Positions 17,386 through 59,375 of a stretch of 64,000 nucleotides of DNA are shown one piece after another (within the stretch, counting starts at the first letter, position 1; every line of letters starts with the position of its first letter). The notes under the pieces were generated by a model. The model was not told the DNA's origin and ran no database searches. It saw nothing but the letters and a program-made list of their open reading frames with translations. The stretch is taken from contig JAYVSV010000003.1 of the NCBI GenBank assembly GCA_043775015.1, forward strand, positions 3,930-67,929, given 5' to 3'. The translations under genes were made by a program, and so were the position numbers. The stretch comes from Verrucomicrobiota bacterium (lineage in GTDB: Bacteria; Verrucomicrobiota; Verrucomicrobiia; Limisphaerales; CANJXF01).

Positions 17386-18822
17386 ATGACTCAACTCCCT
17401 CACATTCCCGTTCTCCGTCGCGGCAAAGCCTACGAAAGCCTCGACAAGATAAATATCACGAATCATCGCACCGGCGAAACGATGGCACAAGTCAGCACCG
17501 TCAACGCGGGAATTATTCGCAAAGATTTGCAACGGATCGGTGAATCTCGCGCGGCGGTGAAGAAGTTTTCCGTCGCGCAGCTCATCGAGATTTCGGCCAA
17601 GGCGGGCGATCTTTTCCTGAATGGCACCCTGCCCTTTGGCGACAAGGGCCACACGCAATCACCACAGGAATATATTGAGACGCTTTCGTCCACGAGCGGG
17701 CTGCCGCATGTGATGGTCCGGCGCAACATGCAGAAGGTTCATCACGCGCTGACGAATTTGAAAACGGTTTTGAATGGTTTGACGCGCGGGCTGGATCTCT
17801 CGATCCTCGACAGCGGTTTTGGCGAGCAGTTTGGGACAAAGCTCAGTTTCTTTCCCACCACGCAAGCGCTCGGCCTCGTCATGCCGAGCAATTCACCCGC
17901 AGTCAATTCACTCTGGCTTCCGGCGATTGCGCTGAAAATTCCGGTCATCATCAAACCGGGAAAAGAAGAGCCGTGGACGCCGTATCGTTTGATTCAGGCA
18001 TTCATCGCGGCAGGTTGCCCAGCGGAGGCGTTTGGATTTTATCCGACTGATCATGAAGGCGCGGGTGAAATTTTAAAAAGCTGCGGACGCGCTCTGATTT
18101 TCGGCGACAAAAATACGACAGCACAATATGCGAGCAATCCGGCGATCCAGGTTCATGGCCCGGGCTGGAGCAAGATTCTCATCGGCGACGATTGCATTGA
18201 AAATTGGCGCGACTATTTGGACGTGATGGTTTCATCCATATCCGACAACGGCGGGCGCAGTTGCATCAACGCTTCGGCCATCGTGGTTCCAAAATACGCG
18301 GCAGAGATTGCGGATGCATTGGCGCAAAAACTTGGGCCGATTCAACCGACAAAACCGGATGATGAAAATGCGAAACTCTCCGGCTTTGCGAATGTGAAAA
18401 TGGCGGAGTTCATCGAGGCGCAAATTGAGGATGGATTGAAAACTTCAGGCGCGACTGACGCGACGGCGAAATATCGCAACGGCTCGCGCAAGATCGAATT
18501 CGACGGTGGAACCTACATGCGGCCAACCATCGTGTTGTGCGACTCGTTTGCTCACCCGCTGTCCAACAAGGAATTTCTTTGTCCCTACGCCAGCGTCGTT
18601 CAAATTCCGCAAGCCGAGATGCTGAAACAAATTGGTTACTCTCTCGCGGTCACCGCGATTACGAAGGACAAGAATTTTATCGAACAACTGACGGAGTTTC
18701 CACACATCGAGCGATTGAACATCGGCCCGATTTCCACGATGAAAATTTCCTGGGATCAACCGCACGAGGGCAACATGTTCGAGTTTCTCTACAAACGGCG
18801 AAGTATCGAACGCGCAAGTTGA
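17386..18822 (+). CDS. LuxC-like / acylating aldehyde dehydrogenase-family reductase
   Basis: ALDH fold with catalytic Cys context NGGRSCINASAIVV. HGPGWS replaces the ELGGKS general-base motif, as in acylating/acyl-CoA-reductase-type ALDHs. Confidence 0.65.
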   Translation: MTQLPHIPVLRRGKAYESLDKINITNHRTGETMAQVSTVNAGIIRKDLQRIGESRAAVKKFSVAQLIEISAKAGDLFLNGTLPFGDKGHTQSPQEYIETLSSTSGLPHVMVRRNMQKVHHALTNLKTVLNGLTRGLDLSILDSGFGEQFGTKLSFFPTTQALGLVMPSNSPAVNSLWLPAIALKIPVIIKPGKEEPWTPYRLIQAFIAAGCPAEAFGFYPTDHEGAGEILKSCGRALIFGDKNTTAQYASNPAIQVHGPGWSKILIGDDCIENWRDYLDVMVSSISDNGGRSCINASAIVVPKYAAEIADALAQKLGPIQPTKPDDENAKLSGFANVKMAEFIEAQIEDGLKTSGATDATAKYRNGSRKIEFDGGTYMRPTIVLCDSFAHPLSNKEFLCPYASVVQIPQAEMLKQIGYSLAVTAITKDKNFIEQLTEFPHIERLNIGPISTMKISWDQPHEGNMFEFLYKRRSIERAS

Positions 18823-18895
18823 ACCATGTGTTCATGAATGCGATGGAGAATTACAGCGCGTGACACTAGCGTCAAATCTGCTAAGGTAAAACCAG

Positions 18896-19132
18896 ATGAA
18901 AACAGTGCCGACATATAATTTTCCTCAGGACGTTCCCATCTGGGTTGACGCGGAACGATTGAGCGGCGCACCCTGTTTCAAAGGCACGCGCGTGCCGGTG
19001 GACAGCCTTTTCAAAAATCTGGAAAGCGGCCTTAGCCTCGACGAATACCTGGATTGTTTTCCCGACGTGACGCGTGAACAAGCCGTTGCCGTTTTAGAAT
19101 ACGCCCACAAGGCGGCGCTTCAAGCTGCATGA
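18896..19132 (+). CDS. DUF433 domain protein (antitoxin-like)
   Basis: LSGAPCFKGTRVPVDSLFKNLESGLSLDEYLDCFPDVTREQAVAVLEY. Confidence 0.8.
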   Translation: MKTVPTYNFPQDVPIWVDAERLSGAPCFKGTRVPVDSLFKNLESGLSLDEYLDCFPDVTREQAVAVLEYAHKAALQAA

Positions 19133-19446
19133 AGGTTCTGCTGGATGCTTGCGTCCCGCGTCCGTTGCGCAATTTTCTCCTCAGCCACACCGTTCAAACC
19201 GCGCAGGAAATGGGCTGGGGAAAACTGAAAAATGGTGCGTTGCTTCAAGCCGTCGAACCGCAGTTCGACGCGTTTCTCACCAGCGATCTAAACCTCAAAT
19301 ACCAGCAGAACGTTGCTGGGCGAAAACTTGCAATTCTGGTTTTGCCCACCAACGACTGGCCAACGCTCCGGCGCATGACGGATAAAATTGCGGACAAAGT
19401 CGCCACGCTGAAGCCGGGCGATTTTGTTGAAATGCCGATGGAGTAA
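19129..19446 (+). CDS. DUF5615 / PIN-like (Mut7-C-type) protein (toxin-like)
   Basis: MKVLLDACVP...FLTSDLNL acidic motifs. 4-nt ATGA overlap with the DUF433 gene. Confidence 0.7.
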   Translation: MKVLLDACVPRPLRNFLLSHTVQTAQEMGWGKLKNGALLQAVEPQFDAFLTSDLNLKYQQNVAGRKLAILVLPTNDWPTLRRMTDKIADKVATLKPGDFVEMPME

Positions 19447-19449
19447 TTG

Positions 19450-19626
19450 GCAGCCGCGACAAATCGCAAGAAGCGCAAAACATTTATCGAACAATTGACG
19501 GAATTCCCGCACATCGAGCGCCTGAACATCGGCCCGATTTCCACAATGAAAATTTCCTGGGACCAACCGCATGAAGGGAACATGTTCGAGTTTCTTTACA
19601 AGCGTCGTTCGATTGAGCGGGCTTGA
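19450..19626 (+). pseudogene. orphan second copy of the 3' end of the LuxC-like gene
   Basis: 19483-19623 encodes the same 47 aa as 18676-18816 (FIEQLTEFPH...YKRRSIERA), followed by its own TGA. No upstream gene body. Confidence 0.85.
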
Positions 19627-19628
19627 TC

Positions 19629-19717
19629 CCGTAGCCGCGTCTCAGCAGAGCGCGGGTGACTCTCTTGCATCGTGATATGAAAACGTTCGACCGCGCTCTG
19701 CCGAGACGCGGCTACGG
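19629..19717. repeat. 27-bp-stem hairpin element
   Basis: CCGTAGCCGCGTCTCAGCAGAGCGCGG (19629-19655) pairs with CCGCGCTCTGCCGAGACGCGGCTACGG (19691-19717) with 1 mismatch and a 35-nt loop. The right arm carries the stop codon of the 910-aa gene. Confidence 0.85.
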
Positions 19718-22444
19718 AGTTTGTGGCGCATCGAAAATATTCCCGATCTTTTGCGGCTTGCGCGAAGTGGACAGGAGCGGCGGAATCATTTCATCCCCCC
19801 GCGAAAAATGGCGCGAATCAAATTGCCAGAGCCAGAGACCGCCATCGGCGGCGAGGCTGGTCACACTCCCGAATTGCGACAAAACCGCGACCCAATCGGA
19901 ATGAATTCCCAAGCGCACGGCAGAAGCGCTCTCCGGCCTTGCCAACGAATCTTCAGGAAACTCCCATCGCCACATTGTTCCGTCTGCTTTTAAGGTGATG
20001 ATTAATCCACCTTCGCCAGCAACGGCACGCCAGTCGGTATCTTTTCCAAGTTGAATGTCTTTCTTCACCAGCCCCATTTGATAATTCTTTCCTGTGGTTT
20101 CCCAAGCGGCGCTGATGACGAATTTTCCATCGTCGAGAACTGAAACCTGAAAACCGCCCTGTCGCCCCGACACCCAAGCGAGTGATCCTGCCTTGCCGTC
20201 ACCCAAGTAATCTGAGCGAAACACACTGAGTGTCTCATCCAAGCGCAAGCTATTGGTGTCGCGGGTGTACAGCGGTGGATAAATCCACGTCTCACCGTTT
20301 TTTTTCCGAAATGCAATTCTCCCTTCTGCAGAAAAAATCCCCGCCCAATCGGATTCGGTTCCCAAACGTTGCGGCTCGAATACGCGCAATCCCGGCCATT
20401 GTTTCTTGGAAGGCACTCCCCATCGCCAAAGTGTGCCATCCGCTTTCAACAAAAATGCTTGAAGTCCGTGACTGGTCACGCTGCTCCAATCGTTTTCATT
20501 ACCGAATGGGGTGAGCATTGGTGTTGGCGGCACGTTGGTATGAAAAAGCAGTTCAAAATTCTGCGGCTTTTCCGAAACCCATAAACTTCCGTCCTTTTGC
20601 ACGCCAACTGAGCCCCAAAAAGTTGTCGCGACACTCGTCCAATTTGTTCCGCTCCAAAAGCCGCTGGCTTGCCCTGATATTTTCCAGTTGCTTGAAAAAA
20701 TTGCCGAAAAAGGTGTTCCACCCATCCTGATTCTGGTTGACCAAATTTTCCCATCGTCGAGTTGAATCAACACTCGCGAACCGGACGACTGGATTTTGGG
20801 CGCTGATGATTTTTCCAACCGAACGATGCCATGCGCTGGTTCAAGCGGTGTGAGGAATTCCCAAGCGCGATGGTAAATGGCACTCGTCATTCCAATCACG
20901 AACGCGAGCGACGCGACGAACACGGCTGCGTTTCGTCGCCAGACTTTCCAGCCGATCAAGACGCGTTTGAAATTCCAATACATCAACGCAAGTAGCGTAA
21001 GCGTCATTACAGGAACACCAATGAGATAGATCAGCCAACCGCGCCAGAGCGGGAAGGGGAAAATTCTTGGAGCCTCGTCGAGAACTTTCTGCATTATAAA
21101 CGACACGAGAATTCCCAGCACCGCAGGGGCGAGCGATTGCAACGTGTTGCGCGAAAGCGTCGAGGCGTAGAAGGAAACGGCGGCGATGATGGTGGCGATT
21201 CCGAGCAAAATGAGAACGGGCAATGAATTGTTAATTGCCGGAAAAATGAAGTGGGCAAGTGTTCCTCCGCGCTGCAACATAAAATAATCGGAAAGCCCGC
21301 CGAGAAACTTAGGATGAAAATCTGGAAGAATCCGGGTTCCTTCCAACAGCAGCGGCAGCGCGATTGCCAGAAATAACGACAGCATCATTGCGCTAACGAA
21401 TTTAATCCAAAATTGCGTGCGGCGTCGCACCGGTAAACAGAGTTGGCTTTCCAAGGTTCCAAGTTTGCGTTCCTCCGTGACGGCGGCGCAACCCACGAGC
21501 AACGGCATGGCAAACCAGAGAAGCCAAAACCAGTTCAGCGCAAATCCTGTCGCGGAAGAATTATTAAAGTTTCCGAATTTGCGAACGACGATGACGGCCA
21601 GATGCAGCAACGCCAACGCGCCCGCCATGATGAGTTGCGATTGGTGCAGTTGAAATTCTTTGAAGAACAGAGCGGCGCGCGGTCGCAAGGTTCGTTCGGC
21701 GCGAGAATTAGTTTTCCCTTTCGTCCGCTGGAGAAATTCTGGCAGCGCGATGTTGCCGCCAGTCCATTGCACGTCTTGCGCGCGCAGGAACAGCCAGCGC
21801 GCGAAAAGAAATCCAGCAATGCTATAAATGCTCAGGACGATAAAGATAGGAGTCTCGACTGATACGGAAGTTTTTTCTGCAATGGTCATTGTCACCATAG
21901 CCAGCGCTGCGGGAAAGATCACTGTGAACCAAAACGCCGCAGCCACCTGGCGGAGCAAAAGCACGGTCCAAAGCCCTCCGGAATAAACAATCAGTGAAAA
22001 AAGAACGCTCGTGACAAATACCCCCTGTAGCTTCTTCGTACTGTCGGCGGAAAAATGGTCGTAAGTCACGGCCATAGCGTGGTGTTTAAAAGAGAGCCAC
22101 CACGCCGCCCAGAGAATCACAATTGCGATGGCGAGCAAAACGGTTTTCGTCCGCCAGATTTTACCGCGCGAAATAGGTTGCGAGAGTAAGTTGGAGAAAG
22201 TTCCGGCGCTGAATTCATGGCCAAATGAGTGCAGCACCATCATCAAAACCAGTGCGGGACTTAGTAAAAAGGGCAGAATGAACCAAAGGTCTGTTTTCCC
22301 CGCATTCTCATAAACTTTTCTCATCCCGGACATGGGACTTTCATTTGAAATCAATAAAAGAGAGAACGAAAAAGATGAAAGAATTAAAGCGCCGATAAAG
22401 GTTGGCAACAATGCTCGAATTTCTTTTCTGATCAGTGCGTTCAT
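19712..22444 (-). CDS. ABC-2-type permease fused to C-terminal RCC1-like 7-blade beta-propeller
   Basis: About 520 aa of polytopic membrane region, followed by repeats LDDGKIWSTR, VQKDGSLWVSE, LKADGTLWRWG, RKKNGETWIYP, VLDDGKFVISAAW, LKADGTMWRWEF, LAADGGLWLWQF. Confidence 0.6.
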   Translation of the reverse strand: MNALIRKEIRALLPTFIGALILSSFSFSLLLISNESPMSGMRKVYENAGKTDLWFILPFLLSPALVLMMVLHSFGHEFSAGTFSNLLSQPISRGKIWRTKTVLLAIAIVILWAAWWLSFKHHAMAVTYDHFSADSTKKLQGVFVTSVLFSLIVYSGGLWTVLLLRQVAAAFWFTVIFPAALAMVTMTIAEKTSVSVETPIFIVLSIYSIAGFLFARWLFLRAQDVQWTGGNIALPEFLQRTKGKTNSRAERTLRPRAALFFKEFQLHQSQLIMAGALALLHLAVIVVRKFGNFNNSSATGFALNWFWLLWFAMPLLVGCAAVTEERKLGTLESQLCLPVRRRTQFWIKFVSAMMLSLFLAIALPLLLEGTRILPDFHPKFLGGLSDYFMLQRGGTLAHFIFPAINNSLPVLILLGIATIIAAVSFYASTLSRNTLQSLAPAVLGILVSFIMQKVLDEAPRIFPFPLWRGWLIYLIGVPVMTLTLLALMYWNFKRVLIGWKVWRRNAAVFVASLAFVIGMTSAIYHRAWEFLTPLEPAHGIVRLEKSSAPKIQSSGSRVLIQLDDGKIWSTRIRMGGTPFSAIFSSNWKISGQASGFWSGTNWTSVATTFWGSVGVQKDGSLWVSEKPQNFELLFHTNVPPTPMLTPFGNENDWSSVTSHGLQAFLLKADGTLWRWGVPSKKQWPGLRVFEPQRLGTESDWAGIFSAEGRIAFRKKNGETWIYPPLYTRDTNSLRLDETLSVFRSDYLGDGKAGSLAWVSGRQGGFQVSVLDDGKFVISAAWETTGKNYQMGLVKKDIQLGKDTDWRAVAGEGGLIITLKADGTMWRWEFPEDSLARPESASAVRLGIHSDWVAVLSQFGSVTSLAADGGLWLWQFDSRHFSRGDEMIPPLLSTSRKPQKIGNIFDAPQTP

Positions 22445-23346
22445 GCGTTCGCCTTTAGAATTTTTGACGCGACAAAAATTTCTTCGAGCGAAAGGGATTC
22501 GCAGAGCAACTCTTCGGGTTGACGTGAACGCAAACCTTCGAGCAGTTGTTCGCTGTTACCGTTGGCGAGGATTTCCACTTCGCGGCCGGTTTGTTTCACA
22601 TTCAATGCGCCAATTAAATTTCCAAGCTGTGGCGGCTCCGCGAAGCGCGCGCGGATTTTTTTGAAACGGTCGCGAGCAGCGTCGGCATCCATCGTCAAAA
22701 GTTCGCGGCCTCCTTCGATGATGGTGAATTGATCAATCAAACCTTCAAATTCTGAAATCAAATGAGTCGAAACAAAAACGGTTCTGCGCGCGGCGTCGCC
22801 GGATTGGAAGGCACCGATGACGGTTTCGATGAATTCGCGGCGCACAATGGGATCGAGGCCGGAAGTAGGTTCGTCGAGCACGAGCAATTCGGGTTCGGGA
22901 CAAATGGCGGCGATGAGCGCGAGTTGGGTCTTCTGCCCTTTCGACATCGAACTGGCTTTTTGCGTTTCGTTCAGACCGAAGCGGCGCAACAAATCAGATT
23001 CGATGTCGCGATTCCAATGTTTGCGGAAGGAGGCGAAGTAATTGAGCGAGTCGCGCACAGACATCCACGGATAAAACGCGACGGCGTCCGGCACGTAGGC
23101 GAGGCGGGATTTCACGGCGACTTCATCGCGCTGCGGATTGAGGCCAAACACGCGCACGGAGCCGGACATGGGGCGCAGCAAATTCAACAGACATTTGATC
23201 GTGGTGGTTTTGCCCGCTCCATTGCGCCCGAAAAATCCGTAGCAACGACCGGGCAGCACTTTGAGGCTGAGGCCGTTCACGGCGTCCGTCTTGCCGTAGC
23301 GATGGTGGAGATTTTGGATTTCAATGATGGGAGTTTCGTTGGTCAT
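22441..23346 (-). CDS. ABC transporter ATP-binding protein
   Basis: Start is MTNETPIIEIQNL. Walker A GRNGAGKTT, signature MSKGQKTQL, Walker B LLVLDEPTSGLD. 4-nt overlap with the permease. Confidence 0.9.
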   Translation of the reverse strand: MTNETPIIEIQNLHHRYGKTDAVNGLSLKVLPGRCYGFFGRNGAGKTTTIKCLLNLLRPMSGSVRVFGLNPQRDEVAVKSRLAYVPDAVAFYPWMSVRDSLNYFASFRKHWNRDIESDLLRRFGLNETQKASSMSKGQKTQLALIAAICPEPELLVLDEPTSGLDPIVRREFIETVIGAFQSGDAARRTVFVSTHLISEFEGLIDQFTIIEGGRELLTMDADAARDRFKKIRARFAEPPQLGNLIGALNVKQTGREVEILANGNSEQLLEGLRSRQPEELLCESLSLEEIFVASKILKANA

Positions 23347-23374
23347 AAATTTTTCCTGGGAGCGTGTTTGAAAA

Positions 23375-23462
23375 GTAGCAGCCGAGGTAACGAGGCTCTG
23401 ACTTGTCGGGCATCGTTTCGTGAAGCGCCGGAATATTTGAGCCTCGTTACCTCGGCTGCTAC
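23375..23462. repeat. perfect 24-bp-stem hairpin between gntR and the ABC ATPase gene
   Basis: GTAGCAGCCGAGGTAACGAGGCTC (23375-23398) pairs with GAGCCTCGTTACCTCGGCTGCTAC (23439-23462). 40-nt loop. Confidence 0.9.
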
Positions 23463-23491
23463 GAATTTTGAATGGGTTTTCACACTCATGT

Positions 23492-23899: not shown

Positions 23900-24049
23900 A
23901 ATTTGCCTTGTGTCCTAGAACACTAGGACAGTTTAGAGAAAGTTGTCAAGCGGGAAATTTGCCCGCAACACGCGGGCGGCGTCCGCAGAGAAATTTTGGT
24001 TGCCGACTTGATTGAACAGGCGGCAACTTGGCGCGTCTGAGAATTGCCA

Positions 24050-25261: not shown

Positions 25262-25288
25262 TCCCATCGCAAATCAGCCAAAGTGCGA

Positions 25289-28382: not shown

Positions 28383-28401
28383 CACCTGGCTCCGGCCAGC
28401 G

Positions 28402-30589: not shown

Positions 30590-31465
30590 TTAAATTACAA
30601 TTTCAGTGCCGATTCCTGCATCAGTGAAAATTTCCAGCAGCACGGAATGTTGAACCCGGCCATCCACAAAAGAAACTTTTTCCACGCCAGCCGTAATCGC
30701 GACAACGGCGCTATCCACCTTTGGAATCATTCCTTTGTCGATCACACCGGTTTTTTTCAATCCGTCCACTTCGGAAATTTGCAGGTGCGAAATCACGGTG
30801 GACGGATCTTTCGGATCACGCATCAAACCTGGAACGTCGCTCATGAAAACAAGTCGTTTCGCCTTCAGCGCGATCGCGACCTGCGCCGCCGCAACATCCG
30901 CATTGCAGTTGTAAATTTTCCCGTCTTCACCGAGTGCGGTTGGACTGATGACCGGTGTGATACCCTGCTTGATACAGGCAAGCAGCGGCGCAGTGTTCAC
31001 TTTAAAAACTTCACCGACGTAACCGATGTCGAGTGGTTGTCCCTGCGAATCTTTGAGAAAAGTTTTTTGACATTTGAAAATTTCTGTTCCAGAGAAACCT
31101 TTGGCCGCGCCGCCGAGGGAATTGATCGTCGCGACAATCTCTGGATTGATTTCAGAAGAAAGAACGTCGTCCACAATCTTCACCGTCGCCTCATCGGTCA
31201 CGCGCTGGCCTTGAATGAAACTGGCTTTCAATCCCGCCGCTTCCATCGCGCGAGTGATTGCTTTGCCGCCGCCGTGAACGACCACCGGATTAATTTCGAC
31301 TGCTTCAAGAAAAACAATGTCGCGCGCCACGCCATTGCGAATCGCCGCGTCCGGGGAATCCATAAAACTTCCGCCGTATTTCACGACGAACGTTTCGCCG
31401 CTGAATTTCTGAATGTAAGGCAACGCTTCAAGCAACGTCGCGGCTTTGGAGATGAGGTCTTGCAT
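30590..31465 (-). CDS. argB: acetylglutamate kinase
   Basis: FVVKYGGSFM, VVVHGGG, NADVAA motifs. Confidence 0.9.
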   Translation of the reverse strand: MQDLISKAATLLEALPYIQKFSGETFVVKYGGSFMDSPDAAIRNGVARDIVFLEAVEINPVVVHGGGKAITRAMEAAGLKASFIQGQRVTDEATVKIVDDVLSSEINPEIVATINSLGGAAKGFSGTEIFKCQKTFLKDSQGQPLDIGYVGEVFKVNTAPLLACIKQGITPVISPTALGEDGKIYNCNADVAAAQVAIALKAKRLVFMSDVPGLMRDPKDPSTVISHLQISEVDGLKKTGVIDKGMIPKVDSAVVAITAGVEKVSFVDGRVQHSVLLEIFTDAGIGTEIVI

Positions 31466-31468
31466 GAG

Positions 31469-31792
31469 TTAAATGAAAAACGAAGCCGGGTTTGCGCGCC
31501 AGTTTTGTGCGCCGTAGATGACACGCAGAATTTCAATCTCTTTTTCCAATCCGCGATAAAAAACCAACCAACGATTGAAAGGTGGTGGCAGGACGCTGAA
31601 GCGAACGCCGGCGAGACGGCGATGTTTCAATCGCGCCATCGGGCCGGATTCAGGAAATTTCGCCAATCGGTCAAACGCTTTGAAGGTTGCGTCCAAAAAA
31701 CACCGTGCTGCTTTCGGATTGTCCGCAAAAATCCAGCGTGCGCCTTCCACCAGGTCATGGTCGGCTTTCGGCTTGGTGCGATAGCCGCTCAT
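31469..31792 (-). CDS. parE: ParE/RelE-fold type II toxin
   Basis: 107 aa. DLVEGARWI...FLDATFKAFDRLAKFPESG...WLVFYR...IEILRVIYGAQN matches the ParE pattern. Confidence 0.8.
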   Translation of the reverse strand: MSGYRTKPKADHDLVEGARWIFADNPKAARCFLDATFKAFDRLAKFPESGPMARLKHRRLAGVRFSVLPPPFNRWLVFYRGLEKEIEILRVIYGAQNWRANPASFFI

Positions 31793-32055
31793 TTCACTTT
31801 CAGTGCCTGATGATAAATGCGTTTCTTACGTTCATCCGTCATCCGCACGCTCTCGCCGCTGTCCAATCCTTCCAGCAACAGCTCTTCCAAATCTTCGCGC
31901 CCATTCACCGAACACCCGCGAGGTCCGGCGTTGCGTTCGAGCGCATCGGCCAGCCGCAACGAATGGCGGATCACTTCACCTTCGTTGGCGAACTGTCCCG
32001 TGGCGATCTGTCGCTGGACGATGCGCTTGTAATAGGGAGTCAATGTTTGGCTCAT
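31789..32055 (-). CDS. parD: ParD-type (RHH, CC2985-like) antitoxin
   Basis: MSQTLTPYYKRIVQRQIATGQFANEGEVIRHSLRL. 4-nt overlap with parE. Confidence 0.7.
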   Translation of the reverse strand: MSQTLTPYYKRIVQRQIATGQFANEGEVIRHSLRLADALERNAGPRGCSVNGREDLEELLLEGLDSGESVRMTDERKKRIYHQALKVK

Positions 32056-32198
32056 ACGGAAGAAATTTCTATCCATCGCCAATGGGAGTCAAGCGTCCGA
32101 AGCGGCCCGTATTTCACGACAAATATTTCGCCACTGAATTTCTGGATGTAAAGCAACGCTTCGAGCAACGTTGCGGCTTTGGAGATGAGGTCGTGCAT
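32052..32198 (-). pseudogene. orphan 5' fragment of argB (31 homologous codons, then an out-of-context tail)
   Basis: MHDLISKAATLLEALLYIQKFSGEIFVVKYG versus argB MQDLISKAATLLEALPYIQKFSGETFVVKYG. The 48-aa ORF ends in a TGA that overlaps the parD ATG (ATGA). Confidence 0.85.
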
Positions 32199-32203
32199 GT
32201 CGA

Positions 32204-33057: not shown

Positions 33058-34419
33058 TCAACCTCCAAGTGTCGTCGGATCAGTTACGTCGCCTTTGTTG
33101 AACTCAACGTATTCCTCGGTCAAATCGGCGGCATACATCAACGCGGCAGCTTTTCCGAGATTCAGATGGATATGCAAATCAAATTCCTTCGGCGCGACGG
33201 CGGCGCAAAGTTCTTTGAAGCTGGTTTTCGTCGGCTGGCCGCGTTTCAAACTCCAAACAATTTTTTTGGAACCCGGCGCGCTGTAACCGATATCGACTTT
33301 TTCTTCGACAACGCGTGCGGCGCTGTAACCGATTGCATCAATGATGCGGCCCCAGTTCGGATCACCGCCGTGCCAACTGGTTTTCACCAATGCGCTGTTG
33401 GCGACCGCGCGGGCTGCGGCATCGGCGTCGGCATAATTTTTTGCTCCGCTTACGCGAACCGTCACAAATGTGGAAACACCTTCGCCATCTCGCACAATCA
33501 TTTTGGCGAGTTCTAGGCAGACGTGATTTAAGGCGGCTTGGAAAGTTTCTAAATCGCGGTGGGGCGAGGCTCCTGACGAGCCGGCTCGCGGGGACGCTCG
33601 CCCCACCAAGCGCGGGTTTTCAGAGAGGCCATTTGCCAAAACTAAAACGGTGTCGTTGGTGCTCATATCGCCATCGACGGTGATGCGATTGAAACTATGC
33701 GCGACGGCTTCGTGCAGTGCGGTTTGCAACGCACTTTTCTCAATCGCGGCATCAGTGGTGATGAAGCAAAGCATCGTTGCGTGTAAAGGAATCGCCGCAG
33801 GGCGCGCGCCGGTTGCGCTCATGCCGGGCTGAATCATCCCTGCGCCTTTGCAAATGCCGCCAATCGTCACGCGCTTGTCGCCGAGCTTGAATTCCACCGC
33901 GATTTGCTTCGGCTTGGTGTCGCTCGTCATGATGGCTTCGGCGACGTGATTGGCGTTTTCAGTGGAACTGTTCAATCGCCACGCTGCGTCCTGAATACCG
34001 CGCTTCACATTTTCCATCGGCATGTTGACGCCGATGCGTCCCGTCGAACCGACGAGCACACTTTTTTCTGAAAGGCCGAGTTCCTTTGCGACAAGGCGTG
34101 CCATTTCAATCGCGTCCTGCATCCCCTGTTTTCCAGTGCAAGCGTTGGCGTTGCCCGAATTGACCACGACCGCCTGAGCTACTCCTGCTTTGACACGCTG
34201 AACGCACACCTTCACCGGCGCGGCGCAAATCTGGTTCGTGGTGAACATGCCGGCGACCGTCGCTGGAACTTTGGAAACGATGAGCGCGAGATCGCGTTTC
34301 TTGCCTTTGTTGGAACCTTTGCCGGTGCCGAGTTTTTTGATGTCGCAAAAAATCCCGGAGGCGAGGAAGCCCTGGGGCACCGTGATTGAACCTGGAACAG
34401 TTTTGAAAGAAGGTTTCAT
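33058..34419 (-). CDS. argJ: bifunctional glutamate N-acetyltransferase / amino-acid acetyltransferase
   Basis: Autoprocessing site PLHATMLCFITTDA, NSGNANACTG, GKGAGMIQP, DPNWGRI. Confidence 0.9.
   Translation of the reverse strand: MKPSFKTVPGSITVPQGFLASGIFCDIKKLGTGKGSNKGKKRDLALIVSKVPATVAGMFTTNQICAAPVKVCVQRVKAGVAQAVVVNSGNANACTGKQGMQDAIEMARLVAKELGLSEKSVLVGSTGRIGVNMPMENVKRGIQDAAWRLNSSTENANHVAEAIMTSDTKPKQIAVEFKLGDKRVTIGGICKGAGMIQPGMSATGARPAAIPLHATMLCFITTDAAIEKSALQTALHEAVAHSFNRITVDGDMSTNDTVLVLANGLSENPRLVGRASPRAGSSGASPHRDLETFQAALNHVCLELAKMIVRDGEGVSTFVTVRVSGAKNYADADAAARAVANSALVKTSWHGGDPNWGRIIDAIGYSAARVVEEKVDIGYSAPGSKKIVWSLKRGQPTKTSFKELCAAVAPKEFDLHIHLNLGKAAALMYAADLTEEYVEFNKGDVTDPTTLGG
33558..33607. 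repeat. nested GC-rich palindromic element lying in frame inside argJ
   Basis: GGTGGGGCGAG (33558-33568) pairs with CTCGCCCCACC (33597-33607). Core palindrome CGAGCCGGCTCG at 33577-33588. Encodes ...LVGRASPRAGSSGASPH... Confidence 0.6.
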
Positions 34420-39671: not shown

Positions 39672-40136
39672 TTAAGCTCCAAGCACCAACGTCCAAGCTC
39701 CAGAGAAATTCCAAATTCCAAACAGCAAAAGCAAAGTCGTCGCGTCCTTGGAGCTTGGGTCATTGGGGCTTCTCTGGATGTTGGACGTTGGTGCTTGGAG
39801 CTTTTCGACTTCGCTGACTTCCGCATCCTCCAGCGCAATCGAACGCTTGATGAAAACGTAGGAAATAACCCAGACAAACGGAAAAAAGGCGATGCCGAGA
39901 ATGAACCACGTCAGCGTGAAACCGAAGATGCGTTTGGCCATCAGCTCAGGCAGGAAATAATTCGCCAGCGGCAAACCGAGCAACACGATCATGAAAGTCA
40001 CGGCGCACGTGACGGAAAGTTTGAGCTGCCGACGCATCAACGTGTGCAAAAAACTCTCACTGTGGATGTCCACCTTCTCAGAACTCGGATTTTTCATGGG
40101 TCGCATTGGTGTAACAAAGCGCTGGCGGCGGAGCAA
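39672..40136 (-). CDS. DUF4212-like solute:sodium symporter small subunit, C-terminally extended through a hairpin element
   Basis: Two-TM core LSVTCAVTFMIVLLGLPLANYF...FTLTWFILGIAFFPFVWVISYVF. The last ~44 codons and the stop codon lie in the repeat 39674-39803. Confidence 0.7.
   Translation of the reverse strand: MLRRQRFVTPMRPMKNPSSEKVDIHSESFLHTLMRRQLKLSVTCAVTFMIVLLGLPLANYFLPELMAKRIFGFTLTWFILGIAFFPFVWVISYVFIKRSIALEDAEVSEVEKLQAPTSNIQRSPNDPSSKDATTLLLLFGIWNFSGAWTLVLGA
39674..39803. repeat. ~34-bp-stem hairpin element at the junction of the two symporter subunit genes
   Basis: AAGCTCCAAGCACCAACGTCCAA (39674-39696) pairs perfectly with TTGGACGTTGGTGCTTGGAGCTT (39781-39803). Adjacent TCCAGAGAA pairs with TTCTCTGGA. 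62-nt loop. Confidence 0.9.
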
Positions 40137-50811: not shown

Positions 50812-50891
50812 AGATAACGCAACCACGCTCTACGGGCGTGGCTGCCCGAACTTGCCTTTGAACTTTGTTTGGTGAATCGTGATCCATAAAT

Positions 50892-51578: not shown

Positions 51579-51580
51579 AC

Positions 51581-52450: not shown

Positions 52451-52452
52451 CA

Positions 52453-53121: not shown

Positions 53122-53134
53122 ATGCATTCAAGTT

Positions 53135-53563
53135 ATGGGCTGGACTGTTGTTACTTACAGGAACGACTCGACGGATTGTAAAGACTGGCATTTGTGGGCG
53201 CTCCGTCATTTTTTCGTTGAGGCGGCGCGAGAAATGAAAGAAACATCACAATCAGAATATGACGTTCAGGCTGTCATCACATTCTTCGAGCATTGGGACT
53301 GGTTGGTGCCGGGCGTGGTTGGTGGCACAGATATTACGGAATTGGTGGAGAGTTCCGCCGTTCGATGGCGAATCGTTCTGGATGTAATGCAGCGCGCAGC
53401 AGATCGTATTGGAAGCTTTGGGGAATGGCTACCCGATTGCTATCTAACCAACGACATCAGTTCGACCGGGAGTTCAGTGGATCATTGCATGACAAAGCCA
53501 CTTTTGGAGTGTATTGGTCGAATCTCAAATTTATTATCGAGGCATGAACCTCTCTCGCACTGA
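53135..53563 (+). CDS. hypothetical protein
   Basis: 142-aa ORF with an ATG start and no recognisable motif. Confidence 0.35.
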   Translation: MGWTVVTYRNDSTDCKDWHLWALRHFFVEAAREMKETSQSEYDVQAVITFFEHWDWLVPGVVGGTDITELVESSAVRWRIVLDVMQRAADRIGSFGEWLPDCYLTNDISSTGSSVDHCMTKPLLECIGRISNLLSRHEPLSH

Positions 53564-53607
53564 GTCGAATCTCAGCCAGTTAATTTCCGATTTCGGAATG
53601 CCTCCCG

Positions 53608-54030
53608 TTACATGGTTTCCTTTTCGGAAAGTTCCAACAATTTCTTAAACTGAACCTCATTCAAAGGTGTGACCGACAAACGCGACTGACGCACCAACGG
53701 AATATCTTTCAAAACCTTATCCGACTTGATGGTTTCCAGCGTGACAGGCGTTTTTAATTTTTTTCCGGGAACCAGATCGACGCACGACCAATCGCCTTCC
53801 TTCGCGGTTGGGTCTGCATAAAACCCTTTCTCCACGGTGGCAATTCCGACCACCTGTTTCTCGCTGACACTGTGGTAAAACAAAACCAGGTCGCCGCGCT
53901 TCATTGCCCGCAGGTTATTTCGCGCCTGAAAATTGCGCACGCCGGTCCAGACGGTTTTTCCATCCTTCACCAAGTCGGACCACGAGTAAGCTTCCGGTTC
54001 CGATTTCACGAGCCAATAGTTCTTTGCCAT
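53608..54030 (-). CDS. EVE (PUA-like) domain protein
   Basis: YWLVKSEPEAYSWSDL...WTGVRNFQARNNLRAMKRGDLVLFYHS. Confidence 0.85.
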   Translation of the reverse strand: MAKNYWLVKSEPEAYSWSDLVKDGKTVWTGVRNFQARNNLRAMKRGDLVLFYHSVSEKQVVGIATVEKGFYADPTAKEGDWSCVDLVPGKKLKTPVTLETIKSDKVLKDIPLVRQSRLSVTPLNEVQFKKLLELSEKETM

Positions 54031-54100
54031 GCGGAATTTTTAGTTCCAATGAATCAAAGCGAAAGAAAAAAGGCGGACAAAAGACGAGACGCAAATTTTA

Positions 54101-54159
54101 CGAATTAACACGAATTCCAAAACATCTTTCCCAATTCGCGTTAATTCGCGCAATTCGCG
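54101..54159. repeat. hairpin plus triple AATTCGCG repeat in a divergent promoter region
   Basis: CGAATTAACACGAATT (54101-54116) pairs with AATTCGCGTTAATTCG (54133-54148) with 1 mismatch. AATTCGCG occurs three times in 54133-54159. Confidence 0.75.
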
Positions 54160-54172
54160 TTCTTCCCTCGTG

Positions 54173-54299
54173 CTGATTGCACTTGCGGCTCTCCGCATTC
54201 TGCGAGAAACAAGGGCGAGTGAATATCGAAAAGAAATTCCGGCGCGGAGTGCTCGGTTCCGGCAAAGGGTCGAATTTCGTCGCGATCTCGGAGCCTTGC
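54173..54299 (+). pseudogene. duplicated purN 5' region (leader plus first ~27 codons), fused in frame to the DUF1553-family gene
   Basis: 127 nt aligns gap-free with 58694-58820 (12 mismatches). VNIEKKFRRGVLGSGKGSNFVAISEPC versus purN VNNEKKFRLGVLGSGKGSNFVAIAEAC. Confidence 0.85.
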
Positions 54300-57083
54300 A
54301 TCAAGAAGCATCACCCCTGCATCACGCTTCCACTTTGGCTTGTTCTTTTCGCACTCTTGTCGTTCGCGCTGACGGCTCGGCTTGATGCCGGCGTGGACTA
54401 CGTCAAAAGCGTTAAACCACTGTTGAAGGAGCGATGCTACGCGTGCCACGGGGCACTCAAACAAAAGGCCCGACTGCGGCTCGACACGGTCGAGTTGATG
54501 CTCCAAGGAGGCAAATCTGGTGCGGCCTTCACGCGCGGGAAACCGGAGGAAAGCCTCATCATTCAACGCGTGACTGCGCCCGACATGGAAGAGCGCATGC
54601 CGCCCGAACACGAAGGCGAGCCGTTCACCCCGGCGCAGGTTGCGCTGCTCCAAGAGTGGATCGTCACAGGTGCTTCCTCTCCGGCGGATGAAAGGGCCGA
54701 GACAGACCCGAAGGAACATTGGGCCTTCCGCCAACGGATGCGTCCGCCGGTTCCGGCAGTAGCCAATGCGAAATGGGTGCGCAATCCCATTGATGCCTTC
54801 CTTGCTAAACAGCACGAGGACCACGGCCTCACCCCGCAACCCGAAGCGTCACGGGCGGTTCTCCTGCGCAGGTTGTATCTCGACTTGATCGGTTTGCCGC
54901 CGAGCCTCGCGGAAATCACCGTCTTCGAGAACGACTCATCACCCGATTGGTATGAGCGCGCTGTGAATTATTTGCTCGATGACCCGCGTCACGGGGAACG
55001 CTGGGCGCGGCACTGGATGGACATTTGGCGCTACAGCGATTGGTGGGGCCTCGGCGACCAGCACCGCAACAGCCAGAAACATATTTGGCACTGGCGGGAT
55101 TGGATTGTGGAATCGCTCAACGCAGACACGCCCTACGACGAGATGATCCGCCTCATGCTGGCCGCTGACGAATCGCATCCCAACGACCTCCAGAAACTCC
55201 GCGCCACCGGCTTTCTCGCCCGCAACTGGTTCCTGTTCAATCGCAATCAGTGGATGGATGAAACCGTCGAGCATGTGAGCAAAGGGTTTCTCGGTCTCAC
55301 GGTGAACTGCGCCAAGTGCCACGACCACAAATTCGACCCCATCTCGCAGGTTGATTACTACCGGATGCGCGCGTTTTTTGAGCCGTATCACGTGCGGATG
55401 GACATGCTCCCCGACGAAGTGGATCTCTTACGCGACGGTATTCCCCGCGTCTTCGACGGTCTGCTCGATACTCCCACGTATCGCTTTGTGCGCGGCGACG
55501 AGGGCAAGCCCGACAAATCTGCCGTCATTGCACCCGGCGTTCCCACGCTGTTCGCCTTCACTCAGTTGGACATCCAGCCCATCGCGTTCCCGCCGGAAGC
55601 CTGGCAACCAGAGCGACGCCCCTGGGTTCTCGATGCCCACCTCGCCACGGCCCGGAAGAAAGTGGAGATTGTGGAGAAAGCTCTTACCCCGGCGCGGGAA
55701 AGACTCGCCGCTGCTCAAACGCGCGAGGCAAAAATAGTCGCGACAGCAACTGCGCCTGCTTTGAAGCCGACTTCACCCGACGAGGCCAAGGCCGCAGTCG
55801 CCACCGCGCACGGCGAGCTAAATGTCGCCGAACTGGCCTTGACCGTGGCCACGGCGGAACTCCTGAGCATCGAAAGTAATTGCACAGCAATGCGCGCTGC
55901 GTGGGCAAGGGCCGATGCTGGCCCCAACCAAGCGAGTGCTGCCCTGGCCAAGCTTGAACGCGATGCGACTTCGTCTGCAATACGCGCGGAACGCGAAGTC
56001 GCCGTCGCGAAGGCCCGCCACGCCATTGCCGATGCCGGGCTTCGCCTTGCCAGCCCGACTGACCCCAAGAAAGACGCCATCGAGAAGGAATTGAAAACCG
56101 CCCGCGAGTCCCTCGACACAGCCACCAAAGCCGTGACTGCTCCGATCACGGAGACCAACAAAATCACCCCGCTCTACGGAGCAAAATGGACACCCACTCG
56201 ATTCTTTAATTCGCAAAAAGACGACCCCACCGTCGAGTTCGGCCCCACAAGCAGTGGCCGCCGCACCGCACTCGCCGGCTGGATTACCGACCCACGCAAC
56301 CCGCTCACCGCGCGCGTCGCTGTAAATCACCTCTGGGCGCGTCATCTGGGAACGCCACTCGTATCCACCACGTTTGACTTCGGGCGCAAGAACGGATCAC
56401 CCACGCATACTGAGTTGCTTGATTGGCTGGCGTCTGAGTTGGTGGATCATGGCTGGAGCATGAAACACTTGCACCGGCTGATCGTCACTTCGGCTGCCTA
56501 TCGAATGAATTCGTCGGCAGCGGGCGGTGAATCCAACATGGCGAAGGATCCCGACAACCTGGGCTGGTGGCGGCGCACACCCATCCGCATCGAGGCAGAG
56601 GTGGTGAGGGATTCTATTCTCGCGCTCGCCGACCAACTGGACACAGCCATCGGTGGCCCCTCGGTTCCGACGGCCAGCCAGGCCGACTCGAAACGCCGCA
56701 GCCTTTATTTCTTCCACTCGAACAACGAGCGAAATCTTTTCCTCACCACATTCGACGAAGCCAGTGTGAAGGAATGTTACCGCCGGGAACAGAGCATCGT
56801 CCCGCAGCAGGCGCTTGCTCTTTCTAACAGCGGCCTCGTGCAGGATTGCACCCACCACATCGCCGCCCGTTTCGGCGCAAACGTTCCAGCGAATGACGAC
56901 CCCGCGTTTGTCCGGCAGGCATTTCGCGGCGTGCTCGGCGTTGAACCTCAACGGGCAGAAGTCGCAGCCTGCGTCACGACCATGGACGCCTGGCGCAAGA
57001 TCCCGGACACTACTCACGATCAGGCGCGCTCTCATCTCATCTGGGCACTACTCAACCACAACGATTTTGTCATGCTGCGTTAA
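54219..57083 (+). CDS. PSCyt / DUF1549 / DUF1553 family protein (planctomycete-type cytochrome-c-motif protein)
   Basis: CYACHG heme motif after the signal-like segment LPLWLVLFALLSFALTA. CAKCHDHKFDP. DUF1553-like C-terminus. The only in-frame start codons (GTG 54219, GTG 54249) lie in purN-derived sequence. Confidence 0.75.
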   Translation: MNIEKKFRRGVLGSGKGSNFVAISEPCIKKHHPCITLPLWLVLFALLSFALTARLDAGVDYVKSVKPLLKERCYACHGALKQKARLRLDTVELMLQGGKSGAAFTRGKPEESLIIQRVTAPDMEERMPPEHEGEPFTPAQVALLQEWIVTGASSPADERAETDPKEHWAFRQRMRPPVPAVANAKWVRNPIDAFLAKQHEDHGLTPQPEASRAVLLRRLYLDLIGLPPSLAEITVFENDSSPDWYERAVNYLLDDPRHGERWARHWMDIWRYSDWWGLGDQHRNSQKHIWHWRDWIVESLNADTPYDEMIRLMLAADESHPNDLQKLRATGFLARNWFLFNRNQWMDETVEHVSKGFLGLTVNCAKCHDHKFDPISQVDYYRMRAFFEPYHVRMDMLPDEVDLLRDGIPRVFDGLLDTPTYRFVRGDEGKPDKSAVIAPGVPTLFAFTQLDIQPIAFPPEAWQPERRPWVLDAHLATARKKVEIVEKALTPARERLAAAQTREAKIVATATAPALKPTSPDEAKAAVATAHGELNVAELALTVATAELLSIESNCTAMRAAWARADAGPNQASAALAKLERDATSSAIRAEREVAVAKARHAIADAGLRLASPTDPKKDAIEKELKTARESLDTATKAVTAPITETNKITPLYGAKWTPTRFFNSQKDDPTVEFGPTSSGRRTALAGWITDPRNPLTARVAVNHLWARHLGTPLVSTTFDFGRKNGSPTHTELLDWLASELVDHGWSMKHLHRLIVTSAAYRMNSSAAGGESNMAKDPDNLGWWRRTPIRIEAEVVRDSILALADQLDTAIGGPSVPTASQADSKRRSLYFFHSNNERNLFLTTFDEASVKECYRREQSIVPQQALALSNSGLVQDCTHHIAARFGANVPANDDPAFVRQAFRGVLGVEPQRAEVAACVTTMDAWRKIPDTTHDQARSHLIWALLNHNDFVMLR

Positions 57084-57095
57084 CCATTTCCATTT

Positions 57096-58553
57096 ATGAA
57101 ACCTGGCTTCAACCCACTCCACCACCTCCGCTCGCGCCGAACTTTTCTTGCCGACATGGGCATGGGTTTCACCGGACTCGCACTCGGCGCCATGCTCCAG
57201 CGCGATGGCTACGCCAGTAGCGGCGGGTGGACGCCACCGACCGGCCTGCCGCATTTCGCGCCCAAAGCCAAGAACGTCATCTGGCTCTTCATGAACGGAG
57301 GTGTGAGCCATGTGGAAAGTTTCGACCCCAAACCCATGCTCACCAAGTATGGCGGCAAAACCATCGCGGAGACGCCATTCAAGGACACCCAGGACCCGAA
57401 GAAACTTGCGCTCGAACGGCTGGTGGTGCCCGATGCCAACGGCAACCAGCGCAACACGCTTTATCCGCTGCAAGTCGGTTTCAAAAAATATGGAGAAAGC
57501 GGTATTGAAGTGAGCGACTGGTTCCCGCACATCGCGCAGAACGTGGACAAACTGGCCGTGGTGCGCTCGATGTGGACGACCGACAGCAATCACGGCGCGC
57601 AGACCCAGTTTCACTCCGGACGCCACCAGAATGACGGTGATTTTCCGACGCTCGGCGCCTGGGTCCACTACGGGCTTGGCAGCCTCAACGATAACCTGCC
57701 GCAGTTCATCTCCATTGGTGCCCGCGAATACTGGAACAAACGCGACGGCCATTACCTCGGCCCCGCGCACGACGCCGTGCCACTGCGCATTGATCCGGAC
57801 AACCCGCTCGATTTCGGCAAACCCGAACGCCCATTTTCCGCCGAAGCGCAAACCTTGGGTCTGGATCTCATCCAGAAGCTCAACGGGCTGCGCGGCGTCG
57901 AGTATCCGCAAGACCCCACGATGGCCGCCCGCGTCGCCTCTTATGAGCTGGCTTTCCGCATGCAGCGCTCGGTGCCCGAGGTGCTCGACTTCTCAAGGGA
58001 GACTTCCGAGACCAAGGCCCTTTATGGCATCGACCAGCCGCATTGTCGCGACTTTGCCATGCAACTCCTCGCCGCCCGGCGCTTCGTCGAGCGTGGCGTG
58101 CGCTTCATCCAGATTCAGCACGGCGGCAGCGGCGCGGGCGCCTGGGACGCGCACGGCGGACTCAAGGACAACCACGCCAAAAATTCGCTCGCCGTCGATC
58201 AACCCACCGGCGCTCTGCTCCAGGACCTCGAACGACGCGGTCTGCTCGACGAGACGATTGTCATTTTTGCCACGGAGTTCGGTCGCACGCCTGGTTCGCA
58301 AGGCTCCGACGGGCGGGATCATCACATCTTTGGCTTCTCCGTCTGGATGGCGGGCGGCGGACTCAAACGCGGGGTCGTCCACGGTGCGACTGATGAGATC
58401 GGATTCCACGCCACGGAGAACCGCCACTACGTCACGGACATCCACGCCACCATTCTCCACCAACTCGGCCTCGACTCCCGCCAACTCGAGATCCCAGGCC
58501 GCAAGCGCCTCGAGATTGACCACGGTAAACCGATCCACGAAATCATTGCGTGA
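57096..58553 (+). CDS. DUF1501 (sulfatase-fold) protein with Tat-type signal
   Basis: [20 protein letters not shown] twin-arginine leader, [19 protein letters not shown]...GRDHH. Confidence 0.9.
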
Positions 58554-58739
58554 AGCTTACGATCTCCCTTCCCAAGCAGCGTCAGCGGAAGACCCGCCAA
58601 GAGTGACGAGAGAAGATTGCCGATAGCCAGTCATCTCTTCGCGATCTTCTATCTTCCAGCCTCTGCATTCTGCTGTTTTCCAAATCCGAAACACTGATTC
58701 CGCTTGCGACTGTTCGCATTCTGCGAGAAACAAGGGCTA

Positions 58740-59375
58740 GTGAATAACGAAAAGAAATTCCGGCTCGGCGTGCTCGGTTCCGGCAAAGGGTCGAACTTCG
58801 TCGCGATCGCGGAGGCTTGCGCCGAAGGAAAAATCCCGGCGGAGGTCGCCATTGTCATCAGCGATGTGGCGGAAGCCGGAATTCTGGATCGAGCACGGGA
58901 GCGCGGGTTGCGGGCGGAATTTATTTCGCCCGGAAAATTCCGGACTAAACTCGACGACGATGCGGAACGCGCCTTCATCGACACGTTGCAAAAGGCGCAG
59001 GTTGATTTAATCGTGCTCGCCGGTTTTATGCGGATTCTAAAAGGCGAATTCCTGCGCGTGTTTGCGAATCGGGTCATCAACATCCATCCATCTCTTCTGC
59101 CCGCGTTCCCCGGTTTGGAATCATGGAAACAAGCGCTGGATTACGGCGTGAAATTCACCGGCTGCACCGTTCATTTTGTCGATCAAGGCGTCGATACCGG
59201 GCCGATCATCGCCCAACAAACCGTTCCAATTCTGGCAGGCGATACGCCGGAAAGTTTACATGGGCGCATTCAAAAGGCGGAATGGGAACTTTACCCTGCG
59301 GCAGTCAGGGCTTTGGCGCGCGGAGAAGTTCAAGTGCAAGGACGGCAGACGATCTGGAAAACGGTGGCGGGTTGA
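58740..59375 (+). CDS. purN: phosphoribosylglycinamide formyltransferase
   Basis: GVLGSGKGSNF, VLAGFMRIL, NIHPSLLPAFPG, and D in VDQGVDTGPII. GTG start at 58740. Confidence 0.9.
   Translation: MNNEKKFRLGVLGSGKGSNFVAIAEACAEGKIPAEVAIVISDVAEAGILDRARERGLRAEFISPGKFRTKLDDDAERAFIDTLQKAQVDLIVLAGFMRILKGEFLRVFANRVINIHPSLLPAFPGLESWKQALDYGVKFTGCTVHFVDQGVDTGPIIAQQTVPILAGDTPESLHGRIQKAEWELYPAAVRALARGEVQVQGRQTIWKTVAG

Follow-up and report, generated by a model that had tools for sequence, protein, structure and literature searches.

The window analysed here is a stretch of 64,000 nucleotides (nt) from a Verrucomicrobiota bacterium of the order Limisphaerales (contig JAYVSV010000003.1, positions 3,930 to 67,929, forward strand). 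It holds three loci at which cargo genes lie between two copies of one end of a conserved chromosomal gene, namely the 3' end of a LuxC-like gene (D1), the 5' end of argB (D3) and the 5' end of purN (D2). Self-comparison of the window DNA for direct repeats returned exactly these three as significant (E values from 1e-29 to 1e-44), and all three overlapped a coding sequence (CDS) terminus and bracketed a cargo. The N- and C-terminal 60 amino acids (aa) of every gene, used as protein queries, gave the same three cases and no others in the window. The repeat copies lay at 18663-18815 and 19470-19622 in D1 (86% identity over 138 nt, 83% over 153 nt), at 31374-31466 and 32107-32199 in D3 (90% over 93 nt), and at 54173-54299 and 58694-58820 in D2 (91% over 127 nt, covering the 5' untranslated region (UTR) and the first 27 codons of purN). 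The cargo-bearing intervals between the copies measured 654 nt at D1, 640 nt at D3 and 4394 nt at D2. At D1, two small co-oriented open reading frames (ORFs) of antitoxin and toxin families overlapped by 4 nt, as did ParD and ParE at D3, the arrangement of a type II toxin-antitoxin (TA) module. The features are collected in Table 1. An original prediction made from the sequence alone had described the three gene-end repeats and their cargos. The self-comparison recovered all of them, with repeat identities slightly higher than it had stated, and each locus kept one full-length host gene equal in length to that of relatives. Its statement that the cargo always runs in the direction of the host gene held within the window and not in the wider clade, where one cargo (in L113, see below) was convergent to its host gene.

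Table 1. Features of the three repeat-bracketed loci, in positions of the window
Feature	Position	Strand	Basis
D1, intact host: LuxC-like acyl-CoA reductase / aldehyde dehydrogenase, 478 aa	17386..18822	+	Pfam Aldedh; 95%-identity homologs of same length
D1a, repeat copy, 3' end of intact LuxC-like gene	18663..18822	+	self-comparison
D1 cargo block, conserved: DUF433 and PIN-like, with ~30 nt of upstream sequence inside the ~45-55-nt conserved leader	18866..19446	+	Pfam; recurs elsewhere
D1, DUF433 antitoxin	18896-19132	+	Pfam
D1, DUF5615-family PIN-like toxin	19129-19446	+	Pfam; homologs carry PF18480
D1b, orphan LuxC 3' fragment, 47 codons and TGA	19470..19626	+	self-comparison
Native hairpin directly after D1b	19629-19717
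D3, intact host: argB (acetylglutamate kinase), in argJ-(TPR)-argB-argD-argF operon	30590..31465	-	Pfam AA_kinase
D3 repeat copy, codons 1-31 of intact argB	31374..31466	-	self-comparison
D3 cargo, ParD and ParE	31469..32055	-	Pfam; same insert in L088, L089
D3, ParD	31789-32055	-	Pfam
D3, ParE, stop 3 nt ahead of argB ATG	31469-31792	-	Pfam, sequence
D3 orphan argB' 5' fragment, repeat 32107-32199; 48-codon ORF, ATGA overlap with parD start	32052..32199	-
D2a, orphan: purN 5' UTR (46 nt) and codons 1-27, in-frame fusion to cargo ORF	54173..54299	+
D2 cargo: PSCyt1/PSCyt2/PSD1 protein, DUF1501 protein, 140-nt spacer	54300..58693	+	Pfam, composition
D2, PSCyt1/PSCyt2/PSD1 ORF	reads 54219 to 57083	+	Pfam
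D2, DUF1501 protein	57096-58553	+	Pfam
D2b, repeat copy, 5' UTR and start of intact purN	58694..58820	+
D2, intact purN, 211 aa	58740-59375	+	length as in relatives

Empty sites were found in close relatives for all three loci (comparison loci carry L numbers), and there the single-copy sequence aligned with both window copies. The TA module and the second gene end of D1 were missing in the closest LuxC relatives, L002-L007 (94% aa identity) and L185 (95%). The cargo of D2 was absent from L168 (94% aa identity in purN), L171 and L172, in which the EVE gene stands directly upstream of purN, and the insert of D3 was absent from L090. D1, D2 and D3 are insertions relative to close relatives, and of different ages. 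The original prediction had allowed that each locus might instead be an ancient tandem duplication fixed across the clade, which fails for D1 and D2 given the empty sites; D3 is old enough for three species-level relatives to have it in common.

A Pfam scan of ~39 window ORFs (chiefly those in 14-64 kb) turned up no integrase or transposase, and an inverted-repeat scan found no terminal inverted repeats at the inserts, so the loci stand, as originally proposed, as lineage-specific insertions that encode no recombinase. Likewise, no tyrosine or serine recombinase was seen among the scanned window genes or beside the clade examples; unrelated insertion sequence (IS) transposases lay 0.6-2 kb away in L175 and L176. 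A DNA transposon or IS was rejected for lack of a transposase, terminal inverted repeats and a short target-site duplication (2-15 bp). An integron cassette was rejected as well, with no attC palindrome and no integrase in the window: the gap from toxin stop to repeat was just 3-36 nt, the D1 cargo ends carried no inverted repeat, and the few in the D3 and D2 regions were short, internal or at chance level. A tRNA island was also discarded, there being no genuine tRNA at the inserts. The sole tRNA call in the window, a 94-nt tRNA-Lys(TTT) reported by ARAGORN at 15553-15646 (-), lies within an MFS transporter gene (14036-15742) and is probably a false positive. Finally, the eight orphan junctions shared no motif, with no 8-mer in more than two of them and no 7-mer in more than three.

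We then asked where the two copies of each repeat had come from. Of the 135 nt (45 codons) compared, 20 differed between D1a and D1b, among them those of an AGT/TCG serine switch, and none of these differences changed an amino acid (proportion of synonymous differences, pS, ~0.65). D1a, D1b and the corresponding ends of L002, L008 and L185 differed pairwise by 15-21 nt and were all about equidistant. Since divergence confined to synonymous sites cannot come from a neutrally decaying orphan, the copies would stem from different species-level lineages; on this codon evidence, both must until recently have been parts of functional genes there. The D1 structure was identical in an independent Logan contig (L001). 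The LuxC-like gene (17386-18822), aligned with that of L185 (3404-4840), showed 97% identity at nt 300-525 and 81-85% across the last 600 nt. The 97% patch is a recombination patch, and which of the two genomes is the recombinant is not assignable. A diversity-generating retroelement with template and variable repeats was considered for D1 and rejected, as the differences were not adenine-specific and no reverse transcriptase was found. After one TAA, the D1 orphan continues the reading frame of the toxin ORF.

The repeats of D2 gave a different picture. D2a directly adjoins the native EVE-purN intergenic region, and the sequence to its left aligned to the native EVE-purN spacer of relatives, whereas that left of D2b did not. 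D2a and D2b shared several derived bases relative to three relatives, and the non-synonymous changes sat in the orphan D2a (ratio of non-synonymous to synonymous differences, pN/pS, 0.65). The cargo was compositionally foreign, with 60% guanine plus cytosine (GC) and 70-76% at third codon positions (GC3) against 52.7% GC for the window. Because of the shared derived bases and the foreign composition of the cargo, D2 is best read as foreign DNA inserted with duplication of 127 nt of the host's own sequence. At the junction, the PSCyt1/PSCyt2/PSD1 ORF lacks its own start codon and reads in frame from the orphaned purN GTG; 27 PurN codons thus precede its signal-peptide-like segment. At D3, ParDE and the orphan were common to the metagenome-assembled genomes (MAGs) L088 and L089 at ~89% nt identity. 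Since window, L088 and L089 share them, D3 predates the split of at least three species-level lineages. The orphans of window and L088 differed at 16 of 93 sites and the intact copies at 6 of 93, with orphan-to-intact distances of 9-11; the D3 copies were probably about identical at insertion and the orphan decayed later, as host-derived repeats would. No orphan was found upstream of ParD in L146. The repeats therefore appear to be of two origins, host-derived (D2, probably D3) and from a different lineage (D1).

Further scars were found in Limisphaerales, in a sample partly picked by cargo or centred on a hot spot. Eighty argB loci from GTDB genomes were examined, and the argJ-argB gap, ancestrally 4-37 nt, proved to be a hot spot for Phd-PIN and ParDE cassettes. 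L090 carried a duplicated argJ 3' end of 138 nt around a Phd-PIN cargo (pS 0.62, pN/pS 0.09), L103 the same cassette with a decayed argJ orphan that begins at the same codon, and L106 a homologous Phd-PIN cargo with an argJ 3' end of 87 nt at 95% identity. In L113, the 3' end of an mgsA/rarA-like gene (119 nt) was duplicated around the convergent cargo mentioned above, a DUF433-PIN module. A 41-nt identical block in L090 was considered as a crossover core and rejected, being merely conserved among close species. In L090 (4068-4211), the stop of the PIN toxin runs into the ATG with which the argJ-orphan ORF opens; such translational-coupling overlaps of orphan ORFs were given no weight, since the ATGA overlap of the argB' ORF and parD at D3 is not kept in L088.

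The most elaborate case was a serial array in L176 (320-6927; ENA ERZ25039495 contig_26770), with five copies (A to E) of the gcvPB 3' end and three different cargos. From gcvPB on, the array runs through a cargo of 2.9 kb, an orphan of 540 nt, DUF433-PIN, two orphans of 160 and then 95 nt, a cargo of two genes and a last orphan of 95 nt. The alleles differed mainly synonymously (A/B, 149 codons, pN/pS 0.087). Sequential events would leave such strings of orphan ends, and they were seen in L176, whereas the window shows single events only. A fourth target was a rhamnosidase gene, whose 3'-end structure occurred in four contigs from four samples (L177-L180); the repeat of L177 was a mosaic, 97-100% identical over the first ~210 nt and ~55% over the last ~180 nt, with the switch just past a conserved FNW motif. 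The window repeats measured 93, 127 and 153 nt, and those of the clade ranged over 87-540 nt. As judged from their codons, the copies at D1 and in L090, L176 and L177 differ in the manner of separate lineages under purifying selection.

One cassette linked several of these loci. Through close toxin homologs, the DUF433-PIN cassette of D1 (~610 nt, ~90% nt identical) was found in at least six unrelated contexts, with a conserved block reaching from ~45-55 nt upstream of the antitoxin to the toxin stop. In three of them it was accompanied by a duplicated host gene 3' end: LuxC in the window (153 nt), gcvPB in L176 (160 nt) and the rhamnosidase gene in L177-L180 (392 nt). At its conserved left end the cassette has (A)TGGAGAATTACAGCGCGTGACA, a repeat of the bases with which its own toxin gene closes, ATGGAGTAA (window 18828-18865 versus 19420-19460; L175/L176 4713-4740). 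No viral contig carrying the cassette was found.

The reading we favour, with moderate confidence, is that the three loci are scars of a gene-end displacement driven by host recombination. A cargo free of mobility genes would insert within ~90-160 nt of the terminus of a conserved chromosomal gene and bring, or regenerate, a full replacement gene end. The host gene would thereby remain whole, and the resident end would move outward beyond the cargo as an orphan; the gene-side junction would be an in-register homologous or homeologous crossover. In most cases the cargo is a type II TA cassette, and once, at D2, it is a 4.4-kb PSCyt/DUF1501 pair. The process may have two tiers. In primary events, a non-homologous cargo would be joined to its target with ~100-130 nt duplicated, possibly by joining to staggered positions on sister chromosomes. 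Such events would be needed because the D2 repeats are host-derived and the DUF433-PIN cassette switches host genes. In the second tier, the repeat-cargo-repeat module would carry homology to a single-copy conserved gene and could spread by RecA-type recombination of the host, through an excised circle and a single crossover, a linear double crossover with one exchange per repeat, or one-sided homologous plus illegitimate joining. Whichever of the three was taken, the donor's gene end would come to stand with that of the recipient, as seen at D1 and in L090, L176 and L177, and arrays would build up. Direct repeats would favour deletion of the cargo, and addictive cargo (TA here, restriction-modification (RM) systems in published cases) would persist; the enrichment of TA cargo is plausibly survivorship, as argued for RM systems.

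The original prediction had proposed Campbell-type integration guided by a homology arm. This agrees with D1 and several relatives, whose copies come from different lineages, and not with the host-derived repeats of D2 and probably D3. The serial array of L176 speaks for the homology arm, but an arm alone does not account for the primary events, given these host-derived repeats and a single cassette that has three different host gene ends. A reciprocal single crossover yields the observed end product, and so would a two-arm double crossover or one-sided joining; the sequences fit all of these alike and do not discriminate between them, because the nearest empty-site relatives are equidistant from both copies. 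The suggested comparison of each repeat copy with its orthologs pointed to a host origin of the D2 copies and assigned no donor at D1 and L090. The Campbell idea is thus plausible, but neither uniquely supported nor new as a concept.

Gene-end displacement was weighed against other accounts of the same structures. A tyrosine or serine recombinase might act in trans on integrase-less elements, comparable to cis-mobilizable elements (CIMEs), whose attP mimics a gene end as in phage 21 and e14 at icd or SXT at prfC. The D1 repeats of ~150 nt, with synonymous-only differences and a distal orphan, match the integrase-borne replacement of gene ends known from phage 21/e14 at icd; att-site islands typically accrete in tandem, as seen in L176, and the ends of the DUF433-PIN cassette are sharply defined and conserved. 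Site-specific integration is disfavoured, however, because no recombinase lies in the scanned window genes or beside the inserts, because the 2-75 nt of non-coding DNA between TA genes and repeats leave no room for a complex attP, because boundaries vary within one target (argJ at -138 in L090 and L103 versus -87 in L106; 540, 160 and 95 nt in gcvPB), and because there is no common junction motif and the same cassette sits at unrelated genes. The D2 repeats, host-derived around foreign cargo, also speak against it, and we regard a recombinase in trans as rather unlikely. Misassembly that joined two strain variants of one gene end, also raised in the original prediction, is hardly credible. The window and most comparison loci are metagenome-derived and the copies do differ like alleles, but D1 recurs unchanged in the independent assembly L001, D3 is also found in two further MAGs, L088 and L089, at ~89% identity, the L177 structure occurs in four contigs from four samples, and a chimeric path would need a k-mer overlap between a cargo end and a gene interior.

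An insertion that was purely illegitimate, duplicating the host target through a staggered break or end joining, would dispense with homology-guided spread altogether, the copies diverging later by allelic replacement or gene conversion; we give it a minor though appreciable chance. D2 and D3 behave as host-host duplications, one cassette occurs with different host gene ends, and the 97% LuxC patch of window and L185, with the patchy identity in L176, points to homologous replacement being active in these populations. On the other hand, this account would require D1, L090, L176 (three distinct serial alleles) and L177 each to have had an allelic replacement of its own that stopped precisely close to the gene terminus, and the D1 orphan, lacking any amino-acid change at its pS, would have been in a functional gene until recently. 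Several observations also weigh against gene-end displacement itself. The other three contexts of the DUF433-PIN cassette (L173, L175 and L181), half of those known, have no repeat. The cassette ends are sharply conserved and include a short terminal direct repeat, TGGAG(T)AA, and in the window the two ends are alike over ~40-60 nt, a terminal redundancy that looks as if the unit had been cut from a tandem or circular form; this similarity is real in the window and ambiguous in the multiple alignment. Sharp ends and redundancy hint at a defined intermediate at the level of the cassette, which the favoured model leaves unexplained. A trans-acting cassette-integration machinery in Limisphaerales that recognises ends such as (A)TGGAG(T)AATT...GTGACA with the terminal redundancy, and inserts at gene termini, is a long shot. 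If real, such dedicated machinery would insert circular or tandem-derived cassettes with staggered target duplications of ~90-160 nt and, given target-site duplications of such great length, would represent a class of integration system of its own that is new. Gene conversion after the event, and not the original crossover, could be the source of the patchy identity in L176 and of the mosaics of L177 and L090. Donor and host copies are not assignable at D1 with L185, L002 and L008, nor at L090 with the window and L088, about equidistant from both copies. Moreover, the mechanism is read from end products, several arguments depend on repeats just 90-150 nt long, and recurrence is known from individual loci.

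Other observations concerned the surroundings of these loci. A Phd/YoeB TA pair (16827-17374) is squeezed in between a LuxE-like AMP-binding gene and the LuxC-like gene, a 12-nt gap separating it from either, and is free of flanking repeats. In relatives the same slot holds a 3.5-kb GH20 and NHL insert on the opposite strand (L002-L007) or two unknown ORFs (L185), and this opposite end of the LuxC-like gene is a second hot spot for insertions. A search with gene-terminus proteins found no decayed orphans beside this cassette or elsewhere in the window. L185 has an MNT (NTP_transf_2) and HEPN pair (255-1062) directly upstream of its LuxE-like gene, not present in the window, which is more evidence for TA turnover at gene boundaries of the LuxE/LuxC operon. 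Two candidates for further scars near LuxC relatives were rejected as a different phenomenon: L022 (2985-3963) and L077 (22-1036) carry IS200-like/RAYT-type transposase genes upstream of the LuxC relatives, flanked by direct repeats of 110-135 nt that resemble repetitive extragenic palindromes (REP). A 55-nt repeat in L074 had at first also looked like a scar near a LuxC relative. Long imperfect intergenic palindromes (50-130 nt, 72-80% self-complementary) occur at 5508-5606, 19629-19717, 23375-23462, 33558-33607, 39674-39803 and 54089-54160 and are probably bidirectional terminators. Two of them stand directly outside the D1 and D2 orphans, and the one at 54089-54160 is kept in the empty-site relative L168, which makes it native. 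A 130-aa ORF of the 23S_rRNA_IVP family (11970-12362) lies between two PQQ-repeat genes without a flanking repeat; it is missing in the close relative L002, which has a 25-nt spacer instead.

Known systems share parts of this architecture. Insertion by an integrase with a replacement gene end is familiar from phage 21 and e14 at icd, from SXT at the 5' end of prfC and from integrase-less CIMEs. Those elements, like the present loci, supply a substitute gene end with mainly synonymous differences and leave the native end at the far border, in 5' and 3' versions. Unlike integrase islands, the loci described here have no integrase that we found, no room for attP, no fixed core position, no shared motif, and cargo of only ~0.6 kb. 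A second precedent, to which the primary events would correspond, is RM-system insertion that comes with long target duplication, reported from several, mostly naturally competent, bacteria, its mechanism unknown (PMC2853133; review PMC3874152); Furuta, Abe & Kobayashi 2010 (PMC2853133) cite it from Nobusato et al. 2000. The likeness lies in addiction-type cargo without transposase or integrase and in long, variable direct repeats that are single-copy at the empty site; the RM repeats measure 46 to ~420 bp, sometimes fall on a gene 3' end and occasionally create gene fusions. The present loci differ in carrying TA modules and a PSCyt/DUF1501 pair, in their Verrucomicrobiota host, and in repeats that consistently cover the CDS terminus and keep the gene intact. 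Several repeat pairs here, moreover, come from different lineages instead of simple duplication in the recipient: the copies are duplicates of the recipient target at D2, consistent with that at D3, and not so at D1, L090, L176 and L177.

The closest published model concerns C-terminal displacement in rhs genes, for which the same architecture and a circle/Campbell route have been described (Jackson et al. 2009, PMC2935791), while one-sided homologous plus illegitimate joining has been proposed for effector-immunity arrays of the type VI secretion system (T6SS) (Kirchberger et al. 2017, PMC5361080). As in rhs, contact-dependent inhibition (CDI) and T6SS loci, an incoming module with a piece of the conserved gene would recombine, the old end would be shunted downstream as an orphan, and arrays would form (compare L176). 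Homologous attached and displaced ends, the displaced one formerly functional or of different origin, were found as in rhs at D1, L176 (A/B) and L177. In those systems the variable toxin tip is the payload, whereas here the payload is a separate cassette, the targets are housekeeping genes (argB, argJ, purN, gcvPB, mgsA and the LuxC-like gene), the replaced end encodes the same protein, and both 5' and 3' gene ends are used. One-sided homology also anchors foreign DNA in homology-facilitated illegitimate recombination (HFIR) (de Vries & Wackernagel 2002 and Prudhomme et al. 2002, as cited in PMC5361080), and integration between chromatids during transformation creates duplications (Johnston et al. 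2013, PMC3784515). The present loci resemble HFIR and merodiploidy in one-sided anchoring and in that interchromatid pairing can duplicate DNA, and they are unlike the documented transformation merodiploids, which span 100-900 kb. HFIR in experiments usually deletes recipient DNA rather than duplicating ~100 nt. Given the rhs (PMC2935791) and RM (PMC2853133, PMC3874152) precedents, the earlier suggestion of an undescribed mobility route was too strong; what stands is that no earlier account of such an arrangement of TA modules with the ends of housekeeping genes was found in the searched literature.

Because chromosomal TA modules carry no mobility function, little is understood of the way they move. 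The loci described here suggest a recurrent, enzyme-less route in which TA modules lodge at the ends of conserved genes together with a duplicated gene end, and this end can be their portable homology arm for entry into whatever genome possesses the gene. Such a route would link the long target duplications of RM systems, the C-terminal displacement of rhs and T6SS loci and the integrase-style replacement of gene ends, and would take these phenomena into a phylum that has had little study, with housekeeping genes as targets and both gene ends in use. The route would also offer a simple reason why addictive cargo dominates, in that the flanking repeats favour deletion.

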